Of a stretch of DNA of 64,000 nucleotides, positions 17,280-59,025 are shown piece by piece (positions within the stretch are counted from its first letter, which is position 1; each line of letters opens with the position of its first letter). Under the pieces are notes generated by a model, which saw only the letters and a list, made by a program, of their open reading frames with translations, had not been told where the DNA came from and ran no database searches. The position numbers were made by a program, and so were the translations under genes. The stretch is from Bacteroidota bacterium (GTDB lineage Bacteria > Bacteroidota > Bacteroidia > Flavobacteriales_F > PHOS-HE28): NCBI GenBank assembly GCA_014584605.1, contig JACTMO010000027.1:11690-75689 (forward strand), written 5' to 3'.

Positions 17280-18043
17280 ACGTTGACCCTTCCGTGGCAC
17301 AGTACGGGTTGATCGGCCGCTCGCTCGGCCACTCACGCTCCCCGGGGATCTTCGCGTCCATCTTCGCCCGCGAAGGCCTGGCGGGCACGCCATATGGGCT
17401 GTTCGAACTGGAACGGGTGGAGGACCTGCCCGCCCTGATCGACCGGCATCCGGACCTGCGGGGCCTCAACGTGACCATCCCGTACAAACAAGCCGTGATG
17501 CCCCTGCTGCACGGGCTGAGCCCCGAAGCCGCCACCGTGGGTGCGGTGAACTGCATCCGGATCCAGGACGGTCGATGGACGGGGCACAACACGGACATCG
17601 ACGGCTTCCGGGCCCTGATCGCCCCGCACCTGCACGCCCTGTCCACCCACGAGGGGGCCCTGCATCCGCGTGCCCTGGTGCTGGGCAGCGGCGGCGCCAG
17701 CCGTGCCGTGGCCTGGGTGCTGCGCGAGGCGGGCCTGCGGTTCCGCGTGGTGAGCCGCAACCACGAACGCGGCGACCTTACCTGGGACCAGGTGGACCGC
17801 ACCGTGCTGGGCGTGTGCCGGTTGCTCATCAACACCACACCACTGGGCATGTGGCCCAAGGTGGATGAGGCCCCCCCGCTTCCTTACGAGCTGCTCACCG
17901 CACGACACCACCTTGTCGACCTGATCTATGCGCCCGAGGAGACCTTGTTCCTTCGGCATGGACGGGAGGCGGGCGCCACCGTGGCGAACGGCCTGGCGAT
18001 GCTGCGCGAACAGGCTGAGGCGGCCTGGCGGTGGTGGCGGTGA
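17276..18043 (+). CDS. aroE: Shikimate dehydrogenase
   Basis: YGLIGRSLGHSRSP, NVTIPYK, GHNTD and GSGGASRAV (NADP loop). The TTG start overlaps the dedA stop by 4 nt. Confidence 0.85.
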   Translation: MNVDPSVAQYGLIGRSLGHSRSPGIFASIFAREGLAGTPYGLFELERVEDLPALIDRHPDLRGLNVTIPYKQAVMPLLHGLSPEAATVGAVNCIRIQDGRWTGHNTDIDGFRALIAPHLHALSTHEGALHPRALVLGSGGASRAVAWVLREAGLRFRVVSRNHERGDLTWDQVDRTVLGVCRLLINTTPLGMWPKVDEAPPLPYELLTARHHLVDLIYAPEETLFLRHGREAGATVANGLAMLREQAEAAWRWWR

Positions 18044-18113
18044 CCCCGGCCGGCTGATGGCGGTCATACCGGAGCGTGCCCGTTCTTCGCGTCCTTCGCA
18101 CATCCTCCCGCCG

Positions 18114-19781
18114 ATGAGACCACACACATCCTTCCCTTCCTGGGCGCTCGCCTGCCTGCTGTCCGCCCCGGCCATGGCCCAGGTCATGAACCCCCTGGCG
18201 ATACCACCGGCCCTGGTGCAGGACACCTTCGACCTGGTGGTGGACGAGCACGTCGTCAGTTTCTATCCCGGGGTGAACACCAACACCTACGGTGCGAGCG
18301 CACCGTACCTGGGGCCCACGCTGGTGCTGCAACAGGGCGACACGGCCCGCATCCGGGTCCACAACGAACTGGCCCAGCTCACCAGCATGCACTGGCACGG
18401 CATGCGGGTGCCCGGCTGGGCGGACGGCGGCCCTCCGCGCGAGGTGCTGCCCGGTGAGACCTGGTTCGTGGAATTCCCGGTGAACAACCCGGCCGCCACC
18501 TTCTGGTACCACCCCCACCCCGACGGGCTCACCGCCGAACAGGCCCACCAGGGCGTGGCCGGGGCCATCGTGGTGCGCGACAGCATCGAAGCGGCGCTGG
18601 ACCTTCCACGCACCTATGGCGTGGACGACCTGCCCGTGGTGATCCAGGACCGCCGGTTCGCACCCAACGGCAACTTCGTCTTCGGCCCTTACGGCGACTC
18701 GGTGCTGGTGAACGGCACCCCGCATGCGTATGTGGAATGCCCGGCCCAGGTGCTGCGCCTGCGGCTGCTCAACGGCAGCAACGCCCGCGTGTACCAGCTC
18801 GGCTTCGACGACGACCGCATTTTCCACGTGATCGCCGGGGACGGCGGGCTGCTGTCCGCCCCGGTGCCCACCGACCGGCTGCCCTTGAGCAACGGCGAAC
18901 GCGCCGAGGTGTTGCTGGACCTCACCGGCATGGAAGGCGACAGCCTGCTGCTGATGAGCTACGGCAGCGAACTGCCCACCACGGTGCCTGGCGGCAACAA
19001 CCCCATCTGGGAATCGAGCGTGCTCAACGGGGCCGACTTCGCGGTGCTGCGCATCCGCGTCACGGCGCCCACGGCCGATCCGGTGACGACCATCCCCGCC
19101 ACCCTGACGACCGTGACACCCCACGATGAGGCCGACGCCGTGCGCACGCGTGTCAAGGAGCTCGCCGGTACGGGCATGGTGGGCATGGGCATGTTCACCA
19201 TCAACGGGCTCATGTTCGACCCCGCCGTGGTGAACGACACCGTGCTGCTGGGCAGCACCGAGGTGTGGGAGATCGTGAACAACAGCAACATGGCCCATCC
19301 CATGCACCTCCACGGCGGATCCTTCTTCGTGCTGGACCGCGACGGTGCCCCTCCCGATCCCTGGGAGCAAGGGCCCAAGGATGTGGTGCTGGTGGATGCC
19401 GGGGCCACGGTCCGCATCATCATGCGCTTCGAGGACCTCACCGACGGCTGGCCCTTCATGTACCATTGCCATAACCTGATGCACGAGGACAACATGATGA
19501 TGCTGCAGTACATCGTGGTGGACCAGAGCACCGCGCTGCCTGCCGCACCGGAGCCCGGGCGGGCCGGCCTGTTCCCGGTGCCCACGGCCGGCGAGGTCCA
19601 CTACGTCTGTCCCTTCCCGGTACGGGAGCTGCGCATCACGGATGCCGCCGGGCGCATCGTGCACACCGATGGCGACCTGCCCGACCGCGGGACGTTGCAC
19701 GTCCCCCTGCCGCCGGGCAGCTACGTCGTGGACTTCAGCGACGGCCTGCGTCGTTGCACGGCCGGGTTGCTGGTGCAATGA
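18114..19781 (+). CDS. Multicopper oxidase with a T9SS C-terminal sorting domain
   Basis: Start trimmed to MRPHTSFPSWALACLLSAPAMA (signal). Copper-site motifs are HWHG, WYHPHP, HPMHLHG and HCHNLMHEDNMMM. The C-terminal tail is T9SS CTD-like (LFPVPTAGEVHYV...GSYVVDFSDG...LLVQ). Confidence 0.85.
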   Translation: MRPHTSFPSWALACLLSAPAMAQVMNPLAIPPALVQDTFDLVVDEHVVSFYPGVNTNTYGASAPYLGPTLVLQQGDTARIRVHNELAQLTSMHWHGMRVPGWADGGPPREVLPGETWFVEFPVNNPAATFWYHPHPDGLTAEQAHQGVAGAIVVRDSIEAALDLPRTYGVDDLPVVIQDRRFAPNGNFVFGPYGDSVLVNGTPHAYVECPAQVLRLRLLNGSNARVYQLGFDDDRIFHVIAGDGGLLSAPVPTDRLPLSNGERAEVLLDLTGMEGDSLLLMSYGSELPTTVPGGNNPIWESSVLNGADFAVLRIRVTAPTADPVTTIPATLTTVTPHDEADAVRTRVKELAGTGMVGMGMFTINGLMFDPAVVNDTVLLGSTEVWEIVNNSNMAHPMHLHGGSFFVLDRDGAPPDPWEQGPKDVVLVDAGATVRIIMRFEDLTDGWPFMYHCHNLMHEDNMMMLQYIVVDQSTALPAAPEPGRAGLFPVPTAGEVHYVCPFPVRELRITDAAGRIVHTDGDLPDRGTLHVPLPPGSYVVDFSDGLRRCTAGLLVQ

Positions 19782-19839: not shown

Positions 19840-20256
19840 TCAGTTGTTCAGCGCGCCCTGCTCGATCCAGTCCCGGATGATCGCGAGTTCCTCACTGCTC
19901 AGGGCGGTTCCGTCCGGTGGCATGCCCAACCCGTAGACCTCGGTGTAGTTCACCTTGTGCCAGAGCACGCTGGCATCCGGGTCGCCGGGCACGATCCGTA
20001 CCGCTGGCGCATGTCCACTGCTCTCCACGTTCACCAGGTTGTTGTACGCTTCCGTGGCGGAAAGGTCCATGTCGCCCATCGGCGGATGACAGGTCCAGCA
20101 ATGTGCGGTGAAGATGGGCAGCACCTCGGCGCTGAAGTAAGCGGTATCGATGGGCGTATCGGGTGGCTTGGGCGCCGGGATGTGCAACGGGCCCTCGTCC
20201 TTGGTGCAGGCGGAGAGCAGAAGTGCGAACACGAGGACGGATGCGGAACGGTCCAT
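19840..20256 (-). CDS. Small haem-binding lipoprotein (single CxxCH, PSCyt1/haem-binding-domain-like)
   Basis: Lipobox LLLSAC. Haem motif in FSAEVLPIFTAHCWTCHPP. A C-terminal IRDWIEQGALNN is typical of this small domain. Confidence 0.7.
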   Translation of the reverse strand: MDRSASVLVFALLLSACTKDEGPLHIPAPKPPDTPIDTAYFSAEVLPIFTAHCWTCHPPMGDMDLSATEAYNNLVNVESSGHAPAVRIVPGDPDASVLWHKVNYTEVYGLGMPPDGTALSSEELAIIRDWIEQGALNN

Positions 20257-20259
20257 GTA

Positions 20260-21174
20260 TCAGTGCTTGGGGGCCTTGGGCTTCACGAGGAGCGTGCGGG
20301 CGATGTTGAAGCCCAGGTGGAACTGGCCCTCGTCGTAGCGCGATGCAGGCATGGTGTAGGCCCGCTGCTCGATGATCTCCTGGCCGCTGGTGAGCACGAT
20401 CTGGAAGATGTGCCCCTGCGTGGCCACCTCATAAGCGATGGCCAGGGGCTCCAGACGATGGCCGGGCCGATGCCCCATGACGATCGGTGCAGCCTCCACC
20501 AGCACAGAACCCTTGGGACTCACCTTGAATCGCCCGGCCACCACCGTGGCAAGGGTAAAATTGTGCTCCCCCACGGCCACCAGGTTGCGATGCACGGCCA
20601 CAGGCGCCACCTGCATGGAGAGCCATGCATTGAAGCGCCGTGCCAGGATGAGCTGCGCGCTGTAGGAAAGGCGATGTTCGAAGCGGTAGGCGAACGGCGT
20701 GCTGCCGTCGGCGAAGAAATCGCGCTCCCCCACGGTGGGCTGGTCATCGCTCATGAGGGCCGCACTGGCCATCACCGTGAGCGATACGGGCATCTCGTTC
20801 TCCACCGTCTGCTTCAGCACCCGGAACTTGGCACCCAGGTCCCACACCTTGCCGTTCTTGGACCTGCCGAGCTCAAGCTGTGCATGGCGGAATGGTGCGT
20901 ACTGGAAGGAGAAACGGATGTTGGCCGGCAGATCGAGCCCGGCGAACTGCTTCCATAACTGTTCATCGGCGCCCAGCGTACCGAAGCGGTGCTGGATCAT
21001 GAACCCGAAGGACCGCTTGCGCGGCACCACCTCCACGCTGTGGGCGTTCACCACCTGTGTGCCGGCGAAAGTCCCGGTGACGAGCTCGGGCTCGGTCCCC
21101 TCCTGGGCCACCAAGGCCCAGGCGCAGAGCAGTGCGGCAACGGACGAGGCCGACCGGTGGATACAGCTTATCAT
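20260..21174 (-). CDS. Predicted outer-membrane beta-barrel protein (DUF5777-like; family name recalled, unverified)
   Basis: Signal peptide (SSVAALLCAWALVAQ). Alternating amphipathic beta-strand pattern throughout. Its start overlaps the upstream cytochrome c stop by 4 nt. Confidence 0.55.
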   Translation of the reverse strand: MISCIHRSASSVAALLCAWALVAQEGTEPELVTGTFAGTQVVNAHSVEVVPRKRSFGFMIQHRFGTLGADEQLWKQFAGLDLPANIRFSFQYAPFRHAQLELGRSKNGKVWDLGAKFRVLKQTVENEMPVSLTVMASAALMSDDQPTVGERDFFADGSTPFAYRFEHRLSYSAQLILARRFNAWLSMQVAPVAVHRNLVAVGEHNFTLATVVAGRFKVSPKGSVLVEAAPIVMGHRPGHRLEPLAIAYEVATQGHIFQIVLTSGQEIIEQRAYTMPASRYDEGQFHLGFNIARTLLVKPKAPKH

Positions 21175-21560
21175 GGGTGTGTGAGGGTCCGGATATAGTG
21201 CGCCACGGCCCAGCGGTCCTCCCGACTGAGCACCTGCTCGTAGGAGGCCATCTCACCGCGGCCATGGGTGATCTTCCAGTAGAGCGCTCCGTTGCTCTGT
21301 TGCTGCACGGCCCCTGAACCCAGGTCGGCCGGCTTCACCTTGAGGACGACGGCATTGGGTCCATCACCGCGGCCTTCCAGGCCATGGCAGGTCCAGCACA
21401 ATGAACGGAAGACCTTGGCTCCGCGCGCCGCCGCTTTGGGATCGCCCGCCATGGGGTCCTTCATGCGATCGGCCTCCGGCGGCGCGGTCCATGGCTCACC
21501 GGCACGGTCCAGGGACATCAGCACAAGGAATGTGCCCAACAGAAGGATGCTGCGGCTCAT
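21171..21560 (-). CDS. Class I c-type cytochrome (mono-haem)
   Basis: Signal peptide, CWTCH haem motif, distal Met context (ITHGRGEMASY). Its start overlaps the upstream gene stop (ATGA). Confidence 0.8.
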   Translation of the reverse strand: MSRSILLLGTFLVLMSLDRAGEPWTAPPEADRMKDPMAGDPKAAARGAKVFRSLCWTCHGLEGRGDGPNAVVLKVKPADLGSGAVQQQSNGALYWKITHGRGEMASYEQVLSREDRWAVAHYIRTLTHP

Positions 21561-23509
21561 GGTCGGTCGGTTCGGGAAGTGGTGCGCAAGGATGCCAGCG
21601 CCTGCTGCACCCTTGCATCGGTGGGGCTCAAGCGGGCGGCGGCCACCAGATGCTCCTCGGCCTGCCGGGTCCGTCCGGAACGTGCGTGCAGCACGCCCAG
21701 CGTGTAGCGCAACCGGGCATCGTTAGGCCGGAGCTCCGTGAGCCGCTCCAGGTGCGGAAGCGCAAGGTCGGGGCGTCCCTGCTGAAGGTGAATGGCCCCC
21801 AGGTTGTTGCGCAGCATGTCCTCAGGGCCACCGTTGCGCAACGCGTCCTCAAAATACCGGATCGCTTCGTCGGTCCGGCCGGTACGATGGGCCAGGGCCC
21901 CGGCGGCGACCAGAAGGTCTCCATCTCCAGGGGCGCGGGTCAGACCGGTCGCATAGGCCTGGCGAGCACCATCGACATCGCCTTCGGCCTCACGTGCGGC
22001 AGCGAGCGCCGCAGCTGATCGTGCCAGCATCAACCGGCCCTGCGTACCTGAACGGTCCATCCCCAGCACCAGGTTCTCGGCCCAAAGGCGCATGGCTTCG
22101 GACCGGTCCCCGGTCGCCGCCTTCATCTCCCCCAGCCGGAAACGCGCTTCGGCATGACCGGGATCGTCGGCCAGGATCCCTTCCAGCAGCTGGGACGAAC
22201 GCGATGTCCCGCCCTGTAGCCTGTAGAGCGAGGCCAGTTCGAAGCGGCGGTCCACAGGCTCGAAAAGGCCGACCCGCAAGGCCGTACCGTAGTGCGCCAC
22301 CGCGCGCCGTATCCGGTCCATGTCCGGTGTTCCGGCTGCCGCCTGCCTGTACAGCGTGCGACCCACGATCGTGTGATATTGTACGAAGGCGCTGTGCACG
22401 AACAGGACGGACAGGCCGACGATGAAGGCGGCGACGACGACGCCCCTGGGTCGCAATGAGCCGTCCATCTTCAGGGTCGCCCCCCTGAACTGCACGGCCC
22501 CCTTGCGCAGAAGCCGCAGACCGAGGACCAAGGCCCAGGCGGTGCAGACCGACAGCGCTACGGCGAGCAGGAAGGGCACGGCATCGTACAGGCCCCGGTA
22601 CACGGGCATGGCGAGCAGGAAGACCACCGCCAGGAACACGTCCTCGCCCACGGTGTTGCTGAACCGCCCCCCATAGGCGCCCATGGGATGCCCTTTGCGG
22701 AAGAGGGGCGGCAAGCGGAAGCCGTAGCGTACGGCGTTCTCCGGGCAGGCGGTGACGCAATCCAGGTCCTTGAGGCACCGCGGATTGGTGACCATGCCAT
22801 GAACGGCCAGCTCGCGGTGTACAAGGATGTCCGATGAGCAGGCCTTGGTGCAGAGCCCGCATTGGCTGCAGTCCTTGGTGAGCACGATGCGACCCGGAGC
22901 GAACTGGTCCGCGATCCCGAAGAGCGCCCCGTACGGGCAGGCCTGGAAGCAGAAGCCGCGGCTTCCCAGCAGGTACACGATGATGAACCCACAGACCAGG
23001 AAGGTGAGCACCGCAACACTCGGTGGCGGCAGGTTGCGCCACATGTCGTCCGTGGTGAAGGAGGACCAGCGCGCACTGCCGGCGGCCACCACCTCCAGGG
23101 CCTGTGCGCTCTCCCCGTGCCACGCCTGCAGCAATTGCGGCCAGATGAAGAGGTAGAACATGACCCCCACCGGTACCCAGATGAGCGTGCGCGAACGGAT
23201 GGGCTGTCGCTTGATGCGCAGCCGGTCAAGCAACCATCCGGAGGCATCCTGCAAGGCGAGGATGTGGCATCCCCAGGAGCAGAAGAAGCGGCCGAGAACG
23301 AGCGTGGCCACCATCACCAACGCCATGAGCAGGAAGCCCGCGGTGAGGATCCCCTGGTGTATGGTGTAGAGCACTTCGTTGAACTCGAGCGGAGCCAGCG
23401 TCCGGCCCTTGAGCTTCCAATGGACGAAGTGGACCACGAAGAGCAGGTGGACGCCCACCAGGGTGGCCACGCGCCATTTGGCATAGTTGGTCCTGCGGGC
23501 CCCGGCCAT
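21557..23509 (-). CDS. NapH/NosH/CcoG-like polyferredoxin membrane protein fused to C-terminal TPR repeats
   Basis: TM helices carry GRFFCSWGCH and GFCFQACPYGALFG. Two ferredoxin motifs are present (CSQCGLCTKACSSD, CLKDLDCVTACPEN). About 250 aa of TPR-like repeats follow (AEARFRLGEMKAATGD, AIRYFEDALRNG, LRYTLGVLHARSGR). Start trimmed to MAGARRTNYAKWR (23509). Confidence 0.75.
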   Translation of the reverse strand: MAGARRTNYAKWRVATLVGVHLLFVVHFVHWKLKGRTLAPLEFNEVLYTIHQGILTAGFLLMALVMVATLVLGRFFCSWGCHILALQDASGWLLDRLRIKRQPIRSRTLIWVPVGVMFYLFIWPQLLQAWHGESAQALEVVAAGSARWSSFTTDDMWRNLPPPSVAVLTFLVCGFIIVYLLGSRGFCFQACPYGALFGIADQFAPGRIVLTKDCSQCGLCTKACSSDILVHRELAVHGMVTNPRCLKDLDCVTACPENAVRYGFRLPPLFRKGHPMGAYGGRFSNTVGEDVFLAVVFLLAMPVYRGLYDAVPFLLAVALSVCTAWALVLGLRLLRKGAVQFRGATLKMDGSLRPRGVVVAAFIVGLSVLFVHSAFVQYHTIVGRTLYRQAAAGTPDMDRIRRAVAHYGTALRVGLFEPVDRRFELASLYRLQGGTSRSSQLLEGILADDPGHAEARFRLGEMKAATGDRSEAMRLWAENLVLGMDRSGTQGRLMLARSAAALAAAREAEGDVDGARQAYATGLTRAPGDGDLLVAAGALAHRTGRTDEAIRYFEDALRNGGPEDMLRNNLGAIHLQQGRPDLALPHLERLTELRPNDARLRYTLGVLHARSGRTRQAEEHLVAAARLSPTDARVQQALASLRTTSRTDRP

Positions 23510-23519
23510 GGGGGACCGA

Positions 23520-25571
23520 TCAGTGGATGGCGACCCTCCGTGTGAATGCACGGCCATCAACGCGCAATCCAAGCATGTACACCCCGGCCGGCAGGTGGTC
23601 CAAGTCCATGGCCCGGATCACCTGGCCCGCAGGTGCATCGAAACGCTCGGCGGATACGCGACGCCCCGTGAGGTCCACCAACTCGACCTCCACGACCGTG
23701 GGGCGGAGCAGGTGCAGAGACAGGTCGAAGTGCCCGTCGTTGGGGTTGGGATACACCTCGAACCCGCGAAGGGACAAGGGCTCATCGACACCGGTGCATA
23801 CCTCCACCGTGACGGGCACGCTGGTCATCGCGCTCAGGCAGCTGCCCCCGCCGACCTCCACCTCCCAATCGTAGAAATACGGATACTCGGTGGACCCGCC
23901 GGACGAACCGGTGATGCTCGCCACCGCACCGATGGCATAGGGATAGCTGACACCGCTGGTGCTGCGCCACAGGTCGGTGGTGCCGCTCACATTGATCAGG
24001 TAGTTGTGGCCCGGCAGGATGTCCCAATCGAGGTCCACCCGCGACTCACCGGCCGGCACCATCACCGAGTGCGATGCGCGCAGCACGCCGATGCCGTCCA
24101 CCAGCTCAATGGTCCGCATGGCCGCACTGCCCGCATAGACCTTCACCGAGGCGAGCCGGAAGGAGGCCAGCGCGTCGAAGCGGAGCGAGCGACCACCGGC
24201 GTGATGGCCACCGCTTCCAGCGTTGTTCGGCTTGCCCCCGTATATGGTCGTCCCTTGTGTGCTGATACGGTCGGCCACCTGGTAGGTGGTGCTGGCATAC
24301 AGGGGCGGCGTGGTGTAAGTGGCTCCGCTGCCCACCGGGTCGCCGAACTGGTCGAACCATTGCGGGTCCAGACCCGTGGTGCTGAGCACCGCCTGTTCTC
24401 CCTCGCAGATGAGAACGCCCGCCGCCGTGGGGGCCGTGGGCTGCGGAAGGGCCGTGACCGTGAAGGGGGCCGATGTGGCCGTGCCGCAATAGCCGGTGAC
24501 GGTCACCGTGTAGGTACCGGGGCCAGCCATGATCCGGCTCGTGGTGGCGCCGGTGGACCACTGATAGGACGTGCCCGGCGAGGCGTAGAGCTCCACTTGG
24601 TCGCCCTGGCAGACGAACGCCTGCTGGTCGCAGTGGATCTCGGCCACTGCCGATGTGGGCGATTGCTGGGTGAGCGTATAGGGAATGGCCGTCCAGTTGT
24701 TGGTCTCGTCGGCCTCCACCACCACGTTCAACGGATCCGACTCCATCACGATCCAATACGCACCGTTGCAGGCGCCGCTCGGGATGTCGATCCACATGCC
24801 ATCGAGATACTCGCTGTACACATCGGTGTACCCCGAGGAGATCCCCTGCCGGGTCATGCTGCACCCGTACGACCCGCCCAAGCCCAGGTTCGGAAAGTTC
24901 GGCCCGGTGAGGGTGGTACCCGCGTTATAGGTCGTGTTGTTGTCCTTGCAATGATGGAGGGCCGCGCCGGCATTGCAGCTGTGATAGTCCATCAGGCAGA
25001 AACCGAGCTTGTACCCCTGGCCTACGATGGGCCATTGGCGCGGGTCGCTCACTCCGGTCTCCTGCATGCGCAGGCTGAAAATGCCCCACTGGTCGTAGTG
25101 CGTGTGCCCGTGGGTGGGGTGGTAGGTCATGCCCTGCGGCATCACCCGCTCCGTGGAGGTCATCACCGCGCCGTTCTTGTGAAAGATGCGCTGCGTGGTG
25201 AGCTGCTTGGCGGTGCCGCCATTGGGACATGCGAACTGCTGCTGGGCCGAGGGATCGTAGACCACGAAGGTGTCCACACCGCACACGAATCTCCTATAGC
25301 CGTTGAGGTCCACCCCTCGAACCTCCAACGGACCGTACCCGATATTGGGCGTGGAGCTCGAGACGTAGATCCGCCCCGGGTCCTCGTTCGGACCGCTGAG
25401 GTAGTTGAGCGCGGCGTACCACGACGTGGTCATGTCGGGAAGCAGGTCACAATTCGACCCCTGCCCGGGCGGGCACTGGCATGTGGTGGCGTTGCTCGTG
25501 GTGCATTGTGCGGCGGCCCCGAGCGGACCGATGAACAGCGCGGCGACCGGAAGAAGCAGACGGTGGTGCAT
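23520..25571 (-). CDS. Secreted lysyl-oxidase-like (LOX catalytic-domain) protein with Ig-like repeats and a T9SS C-terminal sorting domain
   Basis: Signal peptide MHHRLLLPVAALFIGPLGAAAQ. LOX-like motifs are YHPTHGHTHYDQW (compare the animal LOX copper site WHSCHQHYHS), GYKLGFCLMDYHSC (compare GHKASFCLEDTSC), GYTDVYSEYLDGMWIDIPSG (compare [20 protein letters not shown]) and EADETNNW (compare ESDYTNNV). The C-terminus is a T9SS CTD (VYPNPNDGHFDLSL...GVYMLGLRVDGRAFTRRVAIH). Confidence 0.75.
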   Translation of the reverse strand: MHHRLLLPVAALFIGPLGAAAQCTTSNATTCQCPPGQGSNCDLLPDMTTSWYAALNYLSGPNEDPGRIYVSSSTPNIGYGPLEVRGVDLNGYRRFVCGVDTFVVYDPSAQQQFACPNGGTAKQLTTQRIFHKNGAVMTSTERVMPQGMTYHPTHGHTHYDQWGIFSLRMQETGVSDPRQWPIVGQGYKLGFCLMDYHSCNAGAALHHCKDNNTTYNAGTTLTGPNFPNLGLGGSYGCSMTRQGISSGYTDVYSEYLDGMWIDIPSGACNGAYWIVMESDPLNVVVEADETNNWTAIPYTLTQQSPTSAVAEIHCDQQAFVCQGDQVELYASPGTSYQWSTGATTSRIMAGPGTYTVTVTGYCGTATSAPFTVTALPQPTAPTAAGVLICEGEQAVLSTTGLDPQWFDQFGDPVGSGATYTTPPLYASTTYQVADRISTQGTTIYGGKPNNAGSGGHHAGGRSLRFDALASFRLASVKVYAGSAAMRTIELVDGIGVLRASHSVMVPAGESRVDLDWDILPGHNYLINVSGTTDLWRSTSGVSYPYAIGAVASITGSSGGSTEYPYFYDWEVEVGGGSCLSAMTSVPVTVEVCTGVDEPLSLRGFEVYPNPNDGHFDLSLHLLRPTVVEVELVDLTGRRVSAERFDAPAGQVIRAMDLDHLPAGVYMLGLRVDGRAFTRRVAIH

Positions 25572-25635
25572 GGATGTGCGTCGGATGTGGTCGAAATTGA
25601 GGCCATCGGCCCTCAGGAGGATATGACCTGTATCA

Positions 25636-25710
25636 TGTTCATGAACAGTTCGACCAACAGGGTCATGGTGGATCCATGGATACCCATGTACATAGAATGA
25701 TGTGCATCAT
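25636..25710. promoter_or_regulatory. Cluster of four AT-rich palindromes in the LOX/mbnP divergent promoter region
   Basis: The four palindromes are TGTTCATGAACA (25636-25647, perfect 12-mer), ATCCATGGAT (25672-25681), ATGTACAT (25686-25693) and ATGATG-TG-CATCAT (25697-25710). The last resembles a Fur-type AATGAT...ATCAT core. Confidence 0.5.
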
Positions 25711-25745: not shown

Positions 25746-26519
25746 ATGAAGACCCTTCCGCCGCAGTCCGACATCCTCCGGTCGGCGCTGCTGCCCGCGT
25801 TGCTCCTCACCGTTGTTCTGCCCGGTTGCTCCAAGGAGGACGACAGCCTCCCGGACCCGCCATCCCCTACACCCGGAACGGGCATCACCCTCCGTTTGGA
25901 ACACCATGCCGACGGTGTGCCCCTCCAGTTCGACACCGTGCTCTACACCACCGCGTCGGGCCATTCCTATTCGGTGAGCCATCTGGAATACTACATCAGC
26001 GGCATCAGGCTGTTGACAGCAGATACGGGCGACGTGGAGCCGATGATCCCCGGTCCTTTCCTGATCAACGCCCGGCATGAGGCCAGCTTCGACCTGGGAG
26101 CGCTCCCGCCAGGCGACCACACAGGGGTTGAGCTCCGGCTGGGCCTGACACCGGACCTCAACCTCACCGGTGCGCTGCCCAACACGATCGAGAATGTGAA
26201 CATGGCATGGCCCGACGGCATGGGCGGCGGGTATCACTTCATGAAGTTCGAAGGTCATTTCATGAACGCTGGAACCCCCAACGGGTACGCCATCCACCTG
26301 GGCCGGAACGAGATCCTTCCCACCTGCCTCGCCCCGGACGACCTGCACCTGAACGGCAGTGCGCAAACGCTCCTGCTGCGCTTCAACCTCAACGAGGTGT
26401 TCCGGTCGCCGCACACATACGACCTGGTGAGCGGGAGCTACTCCATGGGCGACATGGTGCTCATGGGGCTGCTGCGCGACAACTGTGCCGACGCGTTCAC
26501 AGCGGCCATGGAACCATGA
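25746..26519 (+). CDS. mbnP: MbnP-family periplasmic copper-binding lipoprotein
   Basis: Lipobox VVLPGCS. MbnP-like pattern (YSVSHLEYYISGIRL, NMAWPDGMGGGYHFMKFEGHF). It is translationally coupled to a di-haem MauG/CCP-family gene, the canonical MbnP/MbnH pairing. Confidence 0.7.
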   Translation: MKTLPPQSDILRSALLPALLLTVVLPGCSKEDDSLPDPPSPTPGTGITLRLEHHADGVPLQFDTVLYTTASGHSYSVSHLEYYISGIRLLTADTGDVEPMIPGPFLINARHEASFDLGALPPGDHTGVELRLGLTPDLNLTGALPNTIENVNMAWPDGMGGGYHFMKFEGHFMNAGTPNGYAIHLGRNEILPTCLAPDDLHLNGSAQTLLLRFNLNEVFRSPHTYDLVSGSYSMGDMVLMGLLRDNCADAFTAAMEP

Positions 26520-27547
26520 AGTCCGCCGTTCCCACCGTCCAGGCCGCGGCCTTGGTGCTCCTCTGCCTCACGGCATGCCGTCGCGATGTGCCCGAGGAGC
26601 CCGCATCCGGTGCCCATACCACGCCATTCATCCTCGACCTCCCGGCCAACTTCCCGGTCCCGATCATCCCCGCGTCCAACCCCCTGACGGAGGAAGGCAT
26701 CGCTCTTGGACGTCGGCTTTACTACGACACCCTCCTTTCCCGGAACGGGCCGTTCGAGGGCTTCGCCTGTGCCAGCTGCCACCACCAGGCCACATCCTTC
26801 ACCACACCAACCGCAGGAACGAACGTACTCGCCCATGTGAACCTCGCCTGGGGCACGAACTTCCTTTGGAACGGCAAGGTCTGTGGCACGCTGGAGGACG
26901 TGATGCGCTTTGAAGTGGAGGAGTTCTTCCAAGTGGACATGGCCGAACTGAACGCACATCCCGACTACCCGCAGCTCTTTCAAGAGGCCTTCGGCATCGA
27001 CAACATCACCAGCGACCACGTTGTGAAGGCCCTGGCCCAGTGGTTCAGGCGAATGGTCTCGAGCAACAGCCGGCTGGACCGGCATCTGCGTGGGGAGCTG
27101 CTCCTCACGCCCGAGGAAATGAACGGCGCCATGATCTTTCTCTCGGAGGTCGGCGATTGCTTCCACTGCCACCCCCTGCCTCTGATGACCGACAACGGCT
27201 TCCACAACATCGGCCTCGCTTCGACCTTCGGCGGCTTCGATGTGGGACGCTTTGCCATTACCGGAGCCCCGATGGACATGGGCGCGTTCAAGACCCCTAC
27301 CCTGCGCAACATCGCCCTGACAGCCCCTTACATGCACGATGGCCGCTTCCAGACCCTGGAAGAGCTGGTGGAGTTCTACAACAGCGGTGTCCAGCATTCG
27401 GCCAGCCTGGACCCCCTCATGACCAAGCCCGGCCCCAGCCTCACCCTGGGCCTCACCCCCCAGGATAAAGCGAACCTGGTGAGCTTCCTGCACACGCTCA
27501 CCGACGAGGCCTTCCTTACGGACCCGGCCCTGGGAAGCCCGTTCTGA
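26516..27547 (+). CDS. mbnH: Di-haem cytochrome c peroxidase / MauG-family protein (MbnH-like)
   Basis: Start MKSAVPTVQAAALVLLCLTAC (ATG at 26516 overlaps the mbnP stop, ATGA). Two haem motifs are present, CASCHH and CFHCH. CCP-family patterns FKTPTLRNIALTAPYMHDGRF are present. Confidence 0.85.
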   Translation: MKSAVPTVQAAALVLLCLTACRRDVPEEPASGAHTTPFILDLPANFPVPIIPASNPLTEEGIALGRRLYYDTLLSRNGPFEGFACASCHHQATSFTTPTAGTNVLAHVNLAWGTNFLWNGKVCGTLEDVMRFEVEEFFQVDMAELNAHPDYPQLFQEAFGIDNITSDHVVKALAQWFRRMVSSNSRLDRHLRGELLLTPEEMNGAMIFLSEVGDCFHCHPLPLMTDNGFHNIGLASTFGGFDVGRFAITGAPMDMGAFKTPTLRNIALTAPYMHDGRFQTLEELVEFYNSGVQHSASLDPLMTKPGPSLTLGLTPQDKANLVSFLHTLTDEAFLTDPALGSPF

Positions 27548-27694
27548 GCACACAGGTCCAGCACGCACGGATACGACCCGGCGATGCATCCTCCGCAGTG
27601 CAACAGGCGCCGCGCCCCCTCTGCACACCGCTCCTGGAGGCCGCTTCGGGCACTTCGTTCCCCGGACGACCGCGCCATCGATGCGCCGACCCTT

Positions 27695-27702
27695 TACTTT
27701 CG
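27695..27702 (+). promoter_or_regulatory. Possible -7 box TACTTTCG upstream of the Crp/Fnr gene
   Basis: One mismatch to TAnnTTTG. The same octamer occurs before the Rrf2 gene at 29927-29934. It lies 6 nt before the ATG at 27708 and inside the longer track ORF, which favours the 27708 start. Confidence 0.3.
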
Positions 27703-27707
27703 CCGCC

Positions 27708-28400
27708 ATGGGCAAGGACAGCGTCACGCTGCATCAGCGATTGGACGAGCTGATCCGGTTGTACTGCAGCCTGGAATGGCGCCGCCGCATGCGCGACCAC
27801 AACATCCAGGCGATCTACGCCAAGGGCGAGGCGATCTTCAGCAGCGGTGGGCAGGCCGACCGGATGTTCATGGTGGACCACGGCCGCGTGAAGGTGGTGG
27901 CCGACCTCGGCAACGGCCAGGGCCGCATCATCCGGCTGGCGGGTGATGGAGAGATGCTGGGGCATCGCGCGCTGGGGCGCAAACCCACCTACACGGCCAG
28001 CGCCATCGCCCTGGTGCCCACCCGTGTGAACGCGATACCGATGTCGCTCTTCCTCAGGGCCCTCCAGGAGAACCCGCGGTTCTGCTTCCAATTCCTGCTG
28101 GAGTTCGCTGCGGAGATGCGGCAGCTGGACCGGCATCTGCGCGACCTGCGGACCATGGACGTGACGCAACGCGTGATCCGGACGCTGCTGGAGTGTCGGG
28201 ACACCTTCGGCATGGACATCGCGGACAGCCGACGCCTGGCCTTCACGCTGCCGCGCCGGGACATCGCCAGCATGGCGGACACCACCTATGAATCCGTGGT
28301 GCGGTGCCTGTCCGGCCTCCAGCAGGAGGGGCTCATCCAACTGGTGGGCAAATCGGTGCGGCTGCTGCGGCCCAAGGCCCTGGAGGCACGCCTGCGCTGA
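27708..28400 (+). CDS. Crp/Fnr-family transcriptional regulator (no FNR-type N-terminal Cys cluster)
   Basis: cNMP-binding-like beta-roll (IFSSGGQADRMFMVDHGRVKV, RLAGDGEMLGHRAL). C-terminal HTH with the recognition helix YESVVRCLSG (E..R pattern of FNR-family TTGAT readers). Confidence 0.85.
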   Translation: MGKDSVTLHQRLDELIRLYCSLEWRRRMRDHNIQAIYAKGEAIFSSGGQADRMFMVDHGRVKVVADLGNGQGRIIRLAGDGEMLGHRALGRKPTYTASAIALVPTRVNAIPMSLFLRALQENPRFCFQFLLEFAAEMRQLDRHLRDLRTMDVTQRVIRTLLECRDTFGMDIADSRRLAFTLPRRDIASMADTTYESVVRCLSGLQQEGLIQLVGKSVRLLRPKALEARLR

Positions 28401-28433: not shown

Positions 28434-29807
28434 TCACAGCGGCGCGAAATGGGCCGTGAAGTGCCGCAGGAACCGCGGCTCCCTGGTGATGCGGAAACCC
28501 TTCGCCTGCTTGCGCACCCGCATCACCTCCTCGAAGGTCTCGACCACGTACTCCATGTGGCTCTGGGTATAGACCCGGCGGGGTATGGCCAGCCGCACCA
28601 GCTCCATGGCCGATGGCTTCAACGTGCCATCGGGTCGGTAGGTGCCGAACATCACCGAACCGATCTCCACGCTGCGGATGCCGGCCAGCCGGTACAGCTC
28701 GCACACCAGGGCCTGGCCGGGGTATTCGTGCGGCGGGATGTGCGGGTACAGCGCCTTGGCATCGATGTACACGGCGTGACCGCCGATCGGCCGCATGAGC
28801 GGAACGCCCAGCTCGTGCAGCTTGCGGCCCACGAAGGTGGTGCTCTTGATGCGGTAGTCCAGGTAGTGCGGGTCGAACACCTCCTGTAGGCCGATGGCGA
28901 TGGCCTCCATGTCGCGTCCGCTCAGACCGCCGTACGTGGTAAAGCCCTCGGTGATGATGAGCAGGTTGATGCAGGCCTCGGCCAACCCGGCATCGCGCAA
29001 GGCCAGGAAGCCGCCCATGTTCACGAGCGCGTCCTTCTTGGCGCTCATGACGGCACCGTCCGCCAGGGCGAACATGCGCTGGGCGATCTGCCGGTAGGTC
29101 GCCCCCTCCATGCCCTCCTCACGCTCCTTGATGAACCAGCTGTTCTCGGCGATGCGGCAGCAATCCAGCAGGAAGAGCACCCCATGAGCCTTGCAGGTGC
29201 GGGCCACCGCCTCGGCATTGGCCAGGCTCACCGGCTGACCGCCCCCACTGTTGTTGGTGACGGTGAGGATCACCGCGCCGACCTTCCCCTTGTGCTCCTT
29301 GAGGAGGGCCTCCAGCGCGACAATGTCCATGTTGCCCTTGAAAGGGTGCTCCAGCCCGGGATCACGCCCTTCGGCGATGGGGATGTCGATGGCGGTGGCC
29401 CCGGTGAACTCGATGTTGGCCCGCGTGGTATCGAAGTGCGTGTTGCTGATGAACACCTTGCCCGGACCGCCCAGGTGCCCGTAAAGGATGCGCTCGCCGG
29501 CGCGGCCCTGGTGGGTGGGCAGCACGTGCGCCATGCCGGTGAGGTCCTGCACTTCCGCCTGCATGCGCTCCCAGCTGCGCGATCCGGCATAGGCCTCGTC
29601 GCCTTCCATCAGGCCGGCCCACTGATGCGCGCTCATCGCGCTGGTGCCGCTGTCGGTCATCAGGTCGATGATCACGTCGCGGGACCGGAGCAGGAAGGGG
29701 TTGTAATGGGCCTCCTGCAGGTATTCGCAGCGCTCGGCCTCGGTGCTCAGGCCGATCGGCTCCACGCTCTTGATGCGGAAGGGTTCGATGATGGTGTGGT
29801 GCTTCAT
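28434..29807 (-). CDS. tnaA: Tryptophanase (beta-eliminating lyase, TnaA-type)
   Basis: Real start is MKHHTIIEPFRIKSVEP (29807). PLP-lysine context [13 protein letters not shown]. TnaA-like SNTHFDTTRAN, ELYRLAGIRSVEIGS and FLRHFTAHF. Confidence 0.8.
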   Translation of the reverse strand: MKHHTIIEPFRIKSVEPIGLSTEAERCEYLQEAHYNPFLLRSRDVIIDLMTDSGTSAMSAHQWAGLMEGDEAYAGSRSWERMQAEVQDLTGMAHVLPTHQGRAGERILYGHLGGPGKVFISNTHFDTTRANIEFTGATAIDIPIAEGRDPGLEHPFKGNMDIVALEALLKEHKGKVGAVILTVTNNSGGGQPVSLANAEAVARTCKAHGVLFLLDCCRIAENSWFIKEREEGMEGATYRQIAQRMFALADGAVMSAKKDALVNMGGFLALRDAGLAEACINLLIITEGFTTYGGLSGRDMEAIAIGLQEVFDPHYLDYRIKSTTFVGRKLHELGVPLMRPIGGHAVYIDAKALYPHIPPHEYPGQALVCELYRLAGIRSVEIGSVMFGTYRPDGTLKPSAMELVRLAIPRRVYTQSHMEYVVETFEEVMRVRKQAKGFRITREPRFLRHFTAHFAPL

Positions 29808-29951
29808 GGGGGGATCGGGCGGACCCCGACGCCATGCGCCGGGGCTGCAAAGCTGCCCGTTGACCAGCGCACCGTTCCTGACGGAGGTCACCTGGTGCCC
29901 GCATGCGCGAACGGGCCGCACCACCGTACTTTCGCCCGCCGAACGCGGACC

Positions 29952-30386
29952 ATGTTCTCCAAAGCGTGCGAATACGGCATCCGGGCGGCGATGTGCCTCG
30001 CTTCCTCCGGCCGCACGAACTGCCGCTTGAGCATCCGGGAGGTGGCCGAGCGGACGGGTTCGCCGGAGGCCTTCACCGCCAAGGTGCTGCGCAAGCTGGT
30101 GGAGGGCGGCATGGTCGTGTCGCAACGCGGCCCGCACGGCGGCTTCCTCATCACTCCGGAGCAGGCCCGCAGGATCCGCATCAGCCGCATCGTGGACCTG
30201 ATCGACGGCGACTCGGTGTACAAGGGCTGTGGCCTTGGCCTGGACCGCTGCGACGCCCGCAGGCCCTGCCCGCTGCACGACCAGTTCGCCCGGGTGCGGG
30301 CCGACCTGCGCCGCATGCTGGAAGGCACCACCCTGCACGACGTGGTGGACGGGGTCCCCCTGGACCGCATCATCCTCAAGCGCTGA
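29952..30386 (+). CDS. Rrf2-family transcriptional regulator, NsrR/IscR-like with Fe-S ligand cysteines
   Basis: Start MFSKACEYGIRAAM. wHTH LSIREVAERTGSPEAFTAKVLRKLVEGGMVVSQRGPHGGF. Cys triad GCGLGLDRCDARRPCPLH. The gene sits directly upstream of a truncated haemoglobin/RIC cluster. Confidence 0.85.
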   Translation: MFSKACEYGIRAAMCLASSGRTNCRLSIREVAERTGSPEAFTAKVLRKLVEGGMVVSQRGPHGGFLITPEQARRIRISRIVDLIDGDSVYKGCGLGLDRCDARRPCPLHDQFARVRADLRRMLEGTTLHDVVDGVPLDRIILKR

Positions 30387-30545: not shown

Positions 30546-30659
30546 ATGGTCGGCATGACCAAGGACCTCCCGTCGCTGGTACGGGCCCTGAACATCGCAT
30601 TCCCGGGTCTCATCCTGTTCCATGCCAACCCGGACCGGCAGCTTTCCGATCACGCATGA
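30546..30659 (+). CDS. Candidate 37-codon upstream ORF coupled to the truncated haemoglobin gene (speculative)
   Basis: ATG at 30546 gives MVGMTKDLPSLVRALNIAFPGLILFHANPDRQLSDHA. Its TGA (30657-30659) overlaps the haemoglobin ATG (30656) as ATGA. Third-codon positions are mostly G/C, as in real genes here. It is too short to appear in the ORF track. Confidence 0.2.
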   Translation: MVGMTKDLPSLVRALNIAFPGLILFHANPDRQLSDHA

Positions 30660-31057
30660 GCACGCCCTCCCGCACCGACATCCACGACCGTCGGCACATT
30701 GAACAGCTGGTGAACAGCTTCTACGGGGAGGTGCGGCAGGACGCGCTCCTGGGGCCCATCTTCAACGGGGTGATCGGCGACCGGTGGCCGGAGCACCTGG
30801 AGAAGATGTACCGTTTCTGGGCCACGGTGCTCATCAACGAAAGCTCCTACACGGGCACCCCGCTGCGCCCCCACCTCCCCCTGCCCATCGGTGGAACGCA
30901 TTTCGAGCGCTGGCTCCACCTCTTCCACCAAACCGTGGACCGGCATTTCGAGGGCCCCGTGGCCGAACTGGCCAAGCGGAACGCCGCGCGCATGGCCACC
31001 ATGTTCCAGGAGCGGATCACGCTCCACCGCACGCACCCCCAAAACTTCATCCAATGA
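30656..31057 (+). CDS. Group III truncated haemoglobin
   Basis: 133 aa. Pattern IEQLVNSFYGEVRQDALLGPIFN...WPEHLEKMYRFWATVL...H...FERWLHLF is typical of group III (Ctb-like) truncated haemoglobins. Confidence 0.8.
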   Translation: MSTPSRTDIHDRRHIEQLVNSFYGEVRQDALLGPIFNGVIGDRWPEHLEKMYRFWATVLINESSYTGTPLRPHLPLPIGGTHFERWLHLFHQTVDRHFEGPVAELAKRNAARMATMFQERITLHRTHPQNFIQ

Positions 31058-31938: not shown

Positions 31939-32004
31939 CCCCGCCGGCCCCCGCAAGCCCGATCAGGAGCGGCAGTGGAACAGGCTGACGTCCATCATGT
32001 ATTT

Positions 32005-32028
32005 ATGGATGTTTTTGTCCGTTTCTTT
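32005..32028 (+). promoter_or_regulatory. AT-rich motif ATGGATGTTTTTGTCCGTTTCTTT upstream of ric, related to the 30461 site
   Basis: It shares GAT-N2-TTTTGTCC with the 30461-30483 site and ends 15 nt before the ric ATG (32044). It could be a -7 box, an operator, or both. Confidence 0.3.
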
Positions 32029-32043
32029 GCCCAACAACAGACC

Positions 32044-41137: not shown

Positions 41138-44388
<3,251 letters not shown>

Positions 44389-44420: not shown

Positions 44421-44445
44421 ATATGATGTTTGTCAGTCAATGAAG
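44421..44445 (+). promoter_or_regulatory. AT-rich patch ATATGATGTTTGTCAGTCAATGAAG in the 611-aa gene/norZ divergent region, related to the 30461 and 32005 motifs
   Basis: It contains GATGTTTGTC. This is the only AT-rich stretch in a 380-bp GC-rich intergenic region. Confidence 0.25.
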
Positions 44446-44768
44446 CACGGAGGATCTGGTCTCCCTTTCCGCGAAAAACGTATGGGCCCTGTCTGGCGCG
44501 GGCACGGGACGGTCGGCCTGTCCCGCACGCTCCACCGGGATGGATGCGCGTTCCCGGGCCTCAGGCCCCTTCAACACCGCTTCTCGCGTCAGGCGTTCAC
44601 ATGGTCTGCACCTCGTTCCACACGGCGCGAGGAGCAGGTCGCATCGGGCCCTCCCCACGCCTGATACGGCTCAGCCCGTCCGCTTCCTCACCGGAGCACT
44701 TTGGTCCGGCCGCGCAGGCACGGAGAGATGCCGTCCATCCTCCGCTTCAGGCCCGCGCAGCAACACCC

Positions 44769-54921: not shown

Positions 54922-55107
54922 GGTCCTGTTTGGATGGTTGCACAAACTTTCATCACGTGTGCGTTCCATGCACTGACCGTTGACCGCTCTGTTCCTGATC
55001 CGTGTCACGTCCTCCAGGTGATGACCGGGCGTGCCGCTCCCGAAGCGCCATGCGATCCGGCGGCTTCCCTGAGCGGGTGCGGCGATGCGGAGGAGCGATG
55101 ACCGGGC

Positions 55108-58864: not shown

Positions 58865-59025
58865 GATCGGTCGTTTTACGGCCCGCGGTACGGGCCTGGT
58901 GCTGTGGTCCAACGGTTGCGGCCGGGCGGCCCTGACAGAAACCCTTCGTGCCGGGACCTCGACTTCTATGACTTCCATATTCATCGTTCGTGTTTTCATG
59001 TTCTGAGGCGCCGTGGCGCCCCATG

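Follow-up and report, generated by a model that had tools for sequence, protein, structure and literature searches.

A conserved five-gene operon of Bacteroidota and its possible role in electron transfer to or from a lysyl-oxidase-like surface protein

A tightly packed operon and its conservation across Bacteroidota

Five genes on the minus strand are tightly packed at positions 19840-25571 of a 64-kb stretch of contig JACTMO010000027.1 (the window), which comes from an uncultured member of the Bacteroidota. In the order of transcription, they encode a lysyl oxidase (LOX)-like protein with a sorting domain of the type IX secretion system (T9SS), termed G1; a NapH-like iron-sulfur (Fe-S) membrane protein fused to tetratricopeptide repeats (TPR), termed G2; a mono-haem cytochrome c (G3); a DUF5777 barrel (G4); and a haem lipoprotein (G5). 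This composition and packing had been read from the letters of the window alone in the original prediction, and the open reading frame (ORF) coordinates and junctions matched it exactly (Table 1), while profile searches of all five proteins against Pfam and NCBIfam reproduced its family assignments. From G1 to G5, the junctions consist of a 10-nt gap, two successive 4-nt ATGA overlaps and a 3-nt gap. The longest ORF of G2 begins with TTG at 23572, and its ATG at 23509 gives a protein of 650 aa, which is the length given for the orthologs by independent gene callers. The GC content at third codon positions was about 0.82-0.85 in all five ORFs, which is the pattern of real genes, in a genome and window of about 66% GC. 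On one side, the unit meets a convergent gene for a CueO-like multicopper oxidase; on the other lies a 174-bp intergenic region, across which the divergent mbnP-mbnH genes begin. No sigma-70-type promoter or intrinsic terminator was predicted inside the operon, by a scan that is not suited to the promoter types of Bacteroidota.

To survey the linkage, one genome per GTDB species was scanned with a DUF5777 alignment, which returned 44 loci that are biased toward one DUF5777 subfamily by the narrowness of the alignment; the module genes were detected by searching the window proteins against six-frame ORFs. All five genes were found together in 41 of these 44 species-level loci, and the remaining three comprised one locus cut by a contig end and two (L049 and L050) that lack G2 only. 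In the latter two, G5 has diverged to a lipoprotein of 267 aa but keeps the C-terminal CxxCH/MPP/W..GA.NN signature. When metagenomes were scanned independently with G2 as the anchor, 24 loci of the Bacteroidota type were obtained; the 14 complete ones all contain the full set of five genes, and the others run off contig ends. The species-level loci came from Flavobacteriales, Chitinophagales, Sphingobacteriales (Arcticibacter), Bacteroidia metagenome-assembled genomes (MAGs) and one low-GC contig binned as Gammaproteobacteria. Across them the identity of the barrel went down to about 36%, and the scores of all five proteins fell in parallel, which indicates that the five-gene set evolved as a unit. 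Chance adjacency of the five genes is excluded, and the neighbourhood seen in the window proved to be strongly conserved across Bacteroidota.

Rearranged loci revealed a substructure. At L036 the operon is split, with a cytochrome-barrel-lipoprotein block and a LOX-Fe-S block that are convergent and on opposite strands, and at L044 the gene order is permuted with the five genes still linked. This indicates that the module is made up of two sub-blocks, [LOX, Fe-S/TPR] and [cytochrome c, barrel, lipoprotein]. Flanking ORFs were clustered all against all for the low-GC loci, the high-GC loci being swamped by shadow ORFs, and in 19 distant low-GC loci nothing further was conserved except a sixth gene, present in eight of them (L037-L041, L043, L045 and L047) immediately upstream of LOX. 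The product of the two copies scanned (L041:4514-5338 and L047:4475-5326) is a choice-of-anchor V protein that has a T9SS anchor and, near its N-terminus, CxxCH, which makes it a further candidate for a surface haem protein. The other copies were assigned to the same group because they clustered with these two in sequence or had a similar T9SS tail. L047 holds two tandem copies of the pair of choice-of-anchor V gene and LOX. Upstream of LOX in L036, an ORF (L036:15516-16367) matched Aspzincin_M35, a family of lysine-specific metallo-endopeptidases, weakly (29 bits against a cut-off of 30), which is suggestive beside a LOX-like gene although the score falls short of the threshold.

The five proteins and their likeness to known systems

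G1 comprises a signal peptide, a LOX-like catalytic domain (residues ~22-305), Ig-like domains (in Pfam/NCBIfam, an Ig-like CHU_C-associated domain), a beta-sandwich and a T9SS type A C-terminal sorting domain. In Pfam, Lysyl_oxidase (PF01186) matched residues 233-301 with 39.3 bits against a cut-off of 20.4, and the sorting domain (residues 606-683) scored 31.4 bits with PF18962 and 39.2 bits with TIGR04183 (residues 606-682), both over the cut-offs. G1 is thus probably a T9SS type A cargo with a predicted location at the cell surface. A single-sequence phmmer search of the PDB matched only the T9SS C-terminal domain 8glk and no LOX structure; a profile built from G1 orthologs and homologs matched the LOXL2 structure 5ZE3 (E=6.7e-10, profile positions 132-293). 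In the alignment with LOXL2, H154/H156/H158 fall on the copper histidines (HxHxH), K188 on K653 and Y252 on Y689. The AlphaFold2 model of G1 (pLDDT 84) contains the catalytic, Ig-like, beta-sandwich and sorting domains, and the structures that Foldseek matched to the full-length model were all multidomain proteins of the Ig-like type, such as GhpA, which tell nothing about the catalytic or beta-sandwich domains.

K188 and Y252, which form the putative lysine tyrosylquinone (LTQ) pair, were invariant in the 45 orthologs and in 28 broader homologs; the LTQ cofactor and the amine oxidase activity of G1 are putative. The three copper histidines are kept in the window G1 and in 33 of the 45 orthologs and are replaced in about 12, which belong to at least two lineages (L020/21/23/35 and L037-40/43/46/47/52), the copper motif reading 'TYVSTQNNTRFDQW' and 'TYHGGGSLYNDEW' in variants compared with 'TYHPTHGHTHYDQW' in the window G1. 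In the lineages without copper histidines, all partner genes and the Lys/Tyr pair remain. This indicates that a self-contained, O2-using copper amine oxidase is not the common denominator of the module, and that a Lys/Tyr centre served by partners is. The description of G1 as a copper amine-oxidase-type enzyme therefore holds for the window protein but does not extend to the orthologs that have the Lys/Tyr pair without the copper histidines.

Compared with LOX and LOXL2 (PF01186; 5ZE3), G1 shares a homologous catalytic domain, in which HxHxH, Lys and Tyr align, and has many conserved cysteines, whereas the match is remote, with Pfam covering the C-terminal third only, the catalytic domain is fused to Ig-like and T9SS domains, and about a quarter of the orthologs have no copper ligands. 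We know of no LOX that sits in a cytochrome/Fe-S operon under control of an apparent low-O2 type. LOX-like homologs of at most 55% identity (P0121, P0141 and P0134, all from Bacteroidota) had no such module genes adjoining, which indicates that the linkage belongs to one distinct LOX subfamily and not to all Bacteroidota LOX genes; the subfamily is also recognisable through its conserved C-terminal region. At L006 and L007, several LOX-like paralogs stand next to genes for other T9SS cargo (MAM-domain proteins, an M36 metallopeptidase and a LOX/P_proprotein/PKD protein of 1251 aa), with no cytochrome, Fe-S or barrel genes nearby. The function of bacterial lysyl oxidases is not known (PMC4448552, PMC6452851).

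In G2, Pfam recognized Fer4_5 (two membrane motifs), a Fer4 dicluster ferredoxin segment and C-terminal TPR repeats. The best curated NCBIfam family was NapH, with 57.3 bits against a cut-off of 234 (NF007013) and 47.9 against 213 (TIGR02163), which places G2 below the thresholds of the curated NapH/MauN families. Hydropathy and the positive-inside rule predict seven transmembrane (TM) helices, a cytoplasmic N-terminus and Fe-S domain, and a periplasmic TPR domain (~400-650). The motifs are two CX3CP (C77-C81 and C187-C191), CxxCxxCxxxC (214-224) and CxxDxxCxxxCP (245-256), the last having an invariant Asp (D248) in place of one Cys, and the Fe-S loop is rich in Lys/Arg. Histidines are conserved in TM1 (H27 and H30) and TM7 (H372), and the Cys/Asp cluster ligands are conserved in 45 orthologs and across phyla.

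G2 resembles NapH, NosH and MauN, as found with NapGH and NosGH, in its four-TM core, which carries two CX3CP motifs and precedes a cytoplasmic ferredoxin domain with two clusters, and in its denitrification context. It differs from them in three extra TM helices, a periplasmic TPR domain of ~250 aa, the CxxDxxCxxxCP motif and the TM histidines. It is encoded among genes for a mono-haem cytochrome c, a barrel and a LOX-like protein, whereas a gene for a periplasmic ferredoxin of the NapG/NosG/MauM type was found neither in the window operon nor among the conserved genes of related loci. CcoG/FixG, the well-characterised pathway to which such a protein might have belonged, was rejected as its identity: it shares the NapH-like membrane Fe-S core, an extra TM segment, a periplasmic C-terminal domain and, in the clade of the window, a copper-related neighbourhood, but the C-terminal domain of G2 is TPR and not Ig-like, its gene is not beside ccoNOQP or ccoI, and no CcoG, FixG_C or Fer4_18 model stood among the matches listed (the best 25 of 26 in Pfam and of 36 in NCBIfam), where NapH was best and far under its cut-off.

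G2 is not specific to the five-gene operon. Its search returned 990 homologs across phyla, and those of Planctomycetota and Dormibacteraeota share ~50% identity over the membrane/Fe-S domain, where over 100 positions are invariant. The genes of the non-Bacteroidota homologs have no LOX, barrel or cytochrome neighbours. G2 appears to represent a large, highly conserved, widespread and uncharacterised family with a generic name only. Rrf2 regulators recur near its genes at nine loci, one homolog (L116) lies 1.6 kb upstream of nosZ, and in the planctomycete locus L057 the gene is near NnrS and bc-complex genes. More broadly, G2-family genes (L056, L057, L080-L136) frequently have Rrf2 regulators, multihaem cytochromes, bc-complex genes or nosZ in their vicinity. 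They also repeatedly adjoin, or are translationally coupled to, a gene for a beta-eliminating lyase (L057, L119, L124 and L130; recurrence also in L094, L107 and L113), the coupling being seen sometimes in Planctomycetota-like contigs. Tryptophanase-subfamily beta-eliminating lyases occur near the module itself, two in the window (Table 1) and others in L033, L034, L058, L065, L068 and L075.

G3 is an exported class I mono-haem cytochrome c (PF13442, Cytochrome_CBB3, 49 bits; PF00034, Cytochrom_C, 46 bits) with an N-terminal hydrophobic signal readable in its sequence. The haem motif C55xxC58H59 was found in 46 of 47 orthologs and Met104 in all 47, and the gene always lies directly upstream of the barrel gene. 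Paralogy with the cytochrome c of the nos cluster in the window was considered and rejected, no similarity being detectable. G4 matched PF19089 (DUF5777) with 214.7 bits against a cut-off of 23.1 (E=1.6e-63), and its AlphaFold2 model (pLDDT 85) is a 12-strand beta-barrel, predicted to lie in the outer membrane, for which Foldseek returned only generic outer-membrane barrels, such as OmpG and FapF, with TM-scores of at most 0.47. Among its conserved residues, H62, R63 and H167 are invariant and H255 is kept in 46 of 47 orthologs.

G5 matched PSCyt1 (PF07635) marginally in Pfam (22.6 bits against a cut-off of 22), with C53xxC56H57 in all 44 orthologs and M112-P113, part of an M-P-P motif, in 43. 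Its lipobox L-S-A-C17 is followed by T-K19-D20-E21, the general pattern being x-K-D-(E/S)-G-P, and K19 and D20 are kept in 43 and 42 of the 44 orthologs, respectively. The K-D-E sequence fits the export signal of Bacteroidetes surface lipoproteins, K-(D/E)2 (PMC5080379), and G5 is predicted to be surface-exposed. Distant DUF5777 genes outside the module also had small G5-like lipoproteins with CxxCH, or more rarely CxxxCH, alongside in four of four contexts (Hymenobacter and three from metagenomes; L004, L053, L054 and L055), together with YceI in three of the four, a Rieske protein in one and an OB-fold (tRNA_anti-like) protein in two. This indicates that the barrel and the lipoprotein cytochrome are a general pair that was recruited by the module, and suggests that DUF5777 and PSCyt1-like lipoproteins may form a general outer-membrane redox pair.

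The combination of a barrel gene with c-type cytochrome genes, one of them for a likely surface lipoprotein, and an inner-membrane quinol-linked protein is reminiscent of MtrCAB, PioAB and Cyc2. There is, however, no relation in sequence or fold: G4 has ~12 strands versus 16-26 in the known conduits, the operon cytochromes are separate mono-haem proteins and not multi-haem or barrel-fused, and the terminal component is a quinoprotein-like enzyme and not a metal-reducing or -oxidising cytochrome. No Mtr-type match was found, and the operon lacks the defining features of such conduits (barrel size, multi-haem or fused cytochrome).

A shared palindrome and the denitrification neighbourhood

The palindrome ATGAY-N4-RTCAT, of the CRP/FNR type, has three exact matches in the window versus 0.17 expected, two of them in the divergent intergenic region ahead of G1 and the third before a clade II nos operon (Table 1). 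In about 30 related loci, the box was found ~60-110 bp upstream of the LOX-like or first operon gene, and in operons that begin with the choice-of-anchor V gene it stands ~65 bp ahead of that gene; at the split locus L036, each half has a box ahead of it. L026, L029 and L030 hold only two exact boxes in ~21 kb, one before LOX and one before nosC-nosZ. An extra box before a norC-like gene was found in L001 and L058, and L001 has two boxes in the G1/mbnP intergenic region, as in the window. Since the third box of the window precedes the nos operon, the five-gene operon falls in the same putative regulon, and the most economical reading of these sequences is that one CRP/FNR-type regulon covers both the operon and N2O and NO respiration, and that the operon would be made when oxygen is limiting. 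The Crp/Fnr-family protein encoded in the window, which has no FNR-type N-terminal Cys cluster, is the candidate binder of the palindrome. About 30 loci have a Crp homolog at a distance of up to 10 kb from the operon, this linkage being confined to the Flavobacteriales clade.

These boxes bear on the claim of the original prediction that the NapH-like module has no obvious reductase partner. It was put too strongly, because the operon has its palindrome in common with the nosZ operon of the window and with nos or nor-like operons of relatives, and NosZ or nitric oxide reductase (NOR) could therefore be partners in trans.

In the window, the complete clade II nos cluster (54361-61678) contains no recognised nosG or nosH among the ORFs scanned. 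The mbnP-mbnH pair accompanies the operon in about 21 loci of the Flavobacteriales clade, but it is absent in distant ones. As the Crp/Fnr regulator and the multicopper oxidase are likewise absent from distant loci, all of these are clade-specific company and not part of the conserved core; mbnP-mbnH and CueO-like flanks are kept in about 20 Flavobacteriales MAGs, a copper theme in that clade only. The true start of the multicopper oxidase is probably near 18126, because its orthologs have 551-552 aa, and an identity as NirK was rejected, the protein being CueO-like with three cupredoxin domains.

Other genes of the window are a qNor-like nitric oxide reductase gene and, divergent from it, a 611-aa ORF, which is followed by the second lyase gene and was rejected as a paralog of G2. 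Beyond the Crp gene lie genes for a truncated-globin-like protein, for an iron-sulfur repair di-iron protein (RIC/YtfE) and for a histidine kinase with a sigma-54 NtrC-type response regulator, which would fit an island for nitrosative stress and denitrification. Another respiratory gene of this island is an ORF of 541 aa, which matched COX1 (haem-copper oxidase subunit I) weakly.

Table 1. Coordinates of the operon, the palindromic boxes and other features of the window
Feature	Coordinates	Strand	Remarks
G1, LOX-like T9SS protein	23520-25571	-	683 aa
G2, Fe-S/TPR membrane protein	21557-23509	-	650 aa
G3, mono-haem cytochrome c	21171-21560	-	129 aa
G4, DUF5777 barrel	20260-21174	-	304 aa
G5, haem lipoprotein	19840-20256	-	138 aa
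Palindrome ATGACCTGTATCAT, CRP/FNR-type	25623-25636		~60 bp upstream of G1 start codon; proposed operator
Palindrome, copy two, ATGATGTGCATCAT	25697-25710		Divergent G1/mbnP intergenic region
Palindrome, copy three, ATGACAATTGTCAT	61665-61678		Immediately upstream of clade II nos operon
One-mismatch box ATGATGTTTGTCAG	44423-44436		Divergent region at qNor-like gene start
mbnP	25746-26519	+	Copper-binding protein; Pfam MbnP; divergent from G1
mbnH	26516-27547	+	NCBIfam MbnH family di-haem enzyme, 204 bits; MauG-like
CueO-like multicopper oxidase	17928-19781	+	Three Pfam Cu-oxidase domains; NCBIfam CueO, 348 bits
Crp/Fnr-family regulator	27681-28400	+	Pfam cNMP_binding, HTH_Crp_2; NCBIfam matches all under cut-offs
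nos-cluster cytochrome c	61123-61659	-	Clade II nos cluster
nosZ	59100-61094	-	Clade II
240-aa ORF, possibly nosB	58277-58999	-	No family match
nosL	57840-58319	-	
nosD	56587-57843	-	
nosF	55878-56594	-	
nosY-like	55108-55881	-	
Fasciclin-domain gene	54361-55008	-	
Beta-eliminating lyase	28434-30338		Tryptophanase subfamily
Second beta-eliminating lyase	41138-42523		Tryptophanase subfamily
611-aa ORF	42553-44388		No family match; divergent from qNor-like gene
qNor-like nitric oxide reductase	44430-47084		NorB cytochrome-c-like domain and COX1
Truncated-globin-like protein	30656-31057		
RIC/YtfE protein	31975-32790		
Histidine kinase and response regulator	33235-35687		
541-aa ORF	49653-51278		Weak COX1 match

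A possible electron-transfer chain across the envelope and its alternatives

Each part of the operon belongs to or resembles a known kind, and the whole looks like an undescribed surface-reaching redox system. That no system of this composition had been described was borne out by literature searches, which found no publication on it, no paper mentioning DUF5777 and none that connects lysyl oxidase with T9SS or with gene clusters for cytochromes; the module is likewise unmentioned in a published nos-cluster survey of the same Danish wastewater MAGs and in the results of searches for nos accessory genes. We consider, with a probability of roughly 40%, that the five genes form a conserved Bacteroidota module for electron transfer across the envelope, wired to a surface quinoprotein and used under low-oxygen or denitrifying conditions.

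Starting from the observed gene content, conservation, motifs, predicted topology and shared operator, the presumed protein-protein contacts, haem and LTQ groups, localisations and direction of electron flow would be as follows. In the inner membrane, the Fe-S clusters and CX3CP motifs of G2 would connect the periplasm with the menaquinol pool or with a donor in the cytoplasm, and its TPR domain would dock partners on the periplasmic side. G3 would make the soluble periplasmic step, and the barrel G4 with its cognate lipoprotein cytochrome G5 the outer-membrane step. G1, exported by the T9SS, would be the terminal surface redox site with an LTQ-type Lys-Tyr quinone, and would exchange electrons with cytochromes and not rely on O2; in some lineages the choice-of-anchor V haem protein would join in. 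A CRP/FNR-family regulator would switch the operon on together with the N2O and NO respiration genes when oxygen is scarce. Electrons may flow in either of two ways: from surface amine oxidation into the periplasmic cytochrome c pool and on to NosZ and NOR, with G2 as a parallel menaquinol input, or from menaquinol outward to the surface quinoprotein. More specifically, the T9SS-displayed LTQ protein might be a surface amine dehydrogenase or quinone terminal site wired via G5, G4, G3 and G2 to NosZ/NOR, which in this precise form is doubtful. The idea that the chain disposes of the products of a surface oxidase gained no support.

Such a chain is supported by predicted locations that cover each envelope layer (G2, G3, G4, G5 and G1), by conserved redox motifs (CxxCH and Met in G3 and G5, the Cys/Asp ligands in G2 and K188/Y252 in G1), and by a linkage that survives rearrangement (L036, L044 and L049/L050). 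It is also supported by the general pairing of DUF5777 barrels with lipoprotein cytochromes, by the additional surface haem candidate of some distant loci and by the box that precedes the operon as well as nosC-nosZ and norC-like genes. Since about 12 of 45 orthologs have lost the copper histidines, a quinoprotein to which cytochromes attend is a better fit than a copper oxidase that works with O2 by itself. In concept, the module resembles the quinoprotein amine dehydrogenases. In methylamine dehydrogenase (MADH), with tryptophan tryptophylquinone (TTQ), and in quinohemoprotein amine dehydrogenase (QHNDH), with cysteine tryptophylquinone (CTQ) and a haem c subunit, a protein-derived quinone passes electrons to c-type cytochromes or cupredoxins and not to O2, and accessory redox genes are present; the mau cluster holds the NapH-like MauN and the di-haem MauG. 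Unlike in G1, however, the catalytic subunits of those enzymes are periplasmic and they are unrelated to G1, which is exported by the T9SS and whose LTQ is suggested by Lys/Tyr only.

Several points weigh against an electron-transfer chain of this kind. A 12-strand barrel is too narrow for a cytochrome domain, and two or three mono-haem proteins alone cannot span the outer membrane in the manner of MtrCAB. NapH-type proteins have their Fe-S clusters on the cytoplasmic side, and the operon encodes no NapG-like partner for the periplasm; because transfer from cytochrome c to menaquinone is uphill, G2 suits only one of the two directions of flow. LTQ formation without copper is unexplained for the histidine-less orthologs, G2 homologs in other phyla occur without the other four genes, and all genomes are uncultured MAGs. 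The LOX-like gene always adjoins the Fe-S/TPR gene, in one block that moves apart from the cytochrome-barrel-lipoprotein block, and this constant adjacency could reflect a chaperone or maturation role of the TPR protein. The chain may be respiratory, or it may be a maturation or a copper system.

An unlikely alternative is that G2, with its TPR domain and redox centres, and the cytochromes would act in the periplasm to oxidise Tyr/Lys or load copper, forming the LTQ of G1 before T9SS export, a step that would be of greatest importance where too little O2 is left for self-processing, by analogy with MauG and the mau-cluster ferredoxins for TTQ. Maturation of this kind would account for LOX and Fe-S/TPR genes that are always adjacent and travel together in L036 and L044, for the place of G2 in the NapH/MauN superfamily, for the MauG-family gene mbnH next door in the Flavobacteriales clade and for the apparent low-O2-type regulation, and orthologs that retain Lys/Tyr without copper histidines argue that outside help is needed for the quinone. 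It would, however, leave the barrel, the surface-signal lipoprotein and the T9SS-anchored CxxCH protein of some loci superfluous; L049 and L050 hold LOX, cytochrome, barrel and lipoprotein without G2; G3 and G5 resemble ordinary His/Met electron carriers and not MauG-like catalysts; and G2 homologs are common in phyla without a nearby LOX gene.

Rather improbable is a reading of the operon as two co-regulated units, in which G2 and G3 would form a NosGH/NosC-like route from menaquinol via cytochrome c to NosZ/NOR, and LOX, barrel and lipoprotein would have an unrelated surface role. The operator common to nos and nor-like operons points this way, as do nos clusters 4-7 kb from the module in L026, L029, L030, L023 and L065, the lack of recognised nosG and nosH in the nos cluster of the window, and the company of G2-family genes in other phyla (nosZ at L116, Rrf2 regulators, and NnrS and bc-complex genes at L057). 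But each assessable Bacteroidota G2 homolog sits inside the five-gene module and not beside nosZ, the linkage of the five genes holds across orders without a nearby nos gene, G3 is always coupled in register to the barrel gene and not to G2, and it bears no detectable similarity to the nos-cluster cytochrome c.

Less probable still is the acquisition or handling of copper for copper-rich respiratory enzymes such as NosZ, in which the three histidines of G1 and the surface cytochromes would capture or reduce copper, DUF5777 would import it, G2 would be a cupric reductase like CcoG, which is itself NapH-like, and MbnP and the CueO-like oxidase would buffer periplasmic copper: mbnPH and the oxidase do flank the operon at about 20 loci with a common box-containing promoter region, and the operon is apparently co-regulated with the copper enzyme NosZ, yet these flanking genes are absent from all distant loci, which retain the five genes, the copper ligands of G1 are gone in about a quarter of the orthologs with Lys/Tyr invariant, the matches listed for G2 did not include CcoG, FixG_C or Fer4_18, and no Met/His/Cys copper-channel motif is evident in the barrel.

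The operon joins a bacterial LOX, DUF5777, a NapH-like/TPR family and putative outer-membrane electron transfer in one system, and there is a real chance that the module is categorically new. To our knowledge, the transfer of electrons across the outer membrane has hardly been explored in Bacteroidota. If the proposed electron-transfer chain is true, it would be a new coupling of surface chemistry (amine oxidation or matrix cross-linking) to anaerobic respiration, with a quinoprotein apparently able to dispense with its copper site. In its more specific and doubtful form, wired to NosZ/NOR, it would be a new kind of respiratory module outside the cytoplasm, and would give first physiological roles to bacterial lysyl oxidases, DUF5777 and the polyferredoxin-TPR family and a case of outer-membrane electron transfer in Bacteroidota. 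The carriers are abundant N2O reducers in wastewater plants, in which the operon is apparently on together with nosZ and nor; even as a maturation or copper-supply system for N2O respiration, it would bear on the limits of biological N2O removal.

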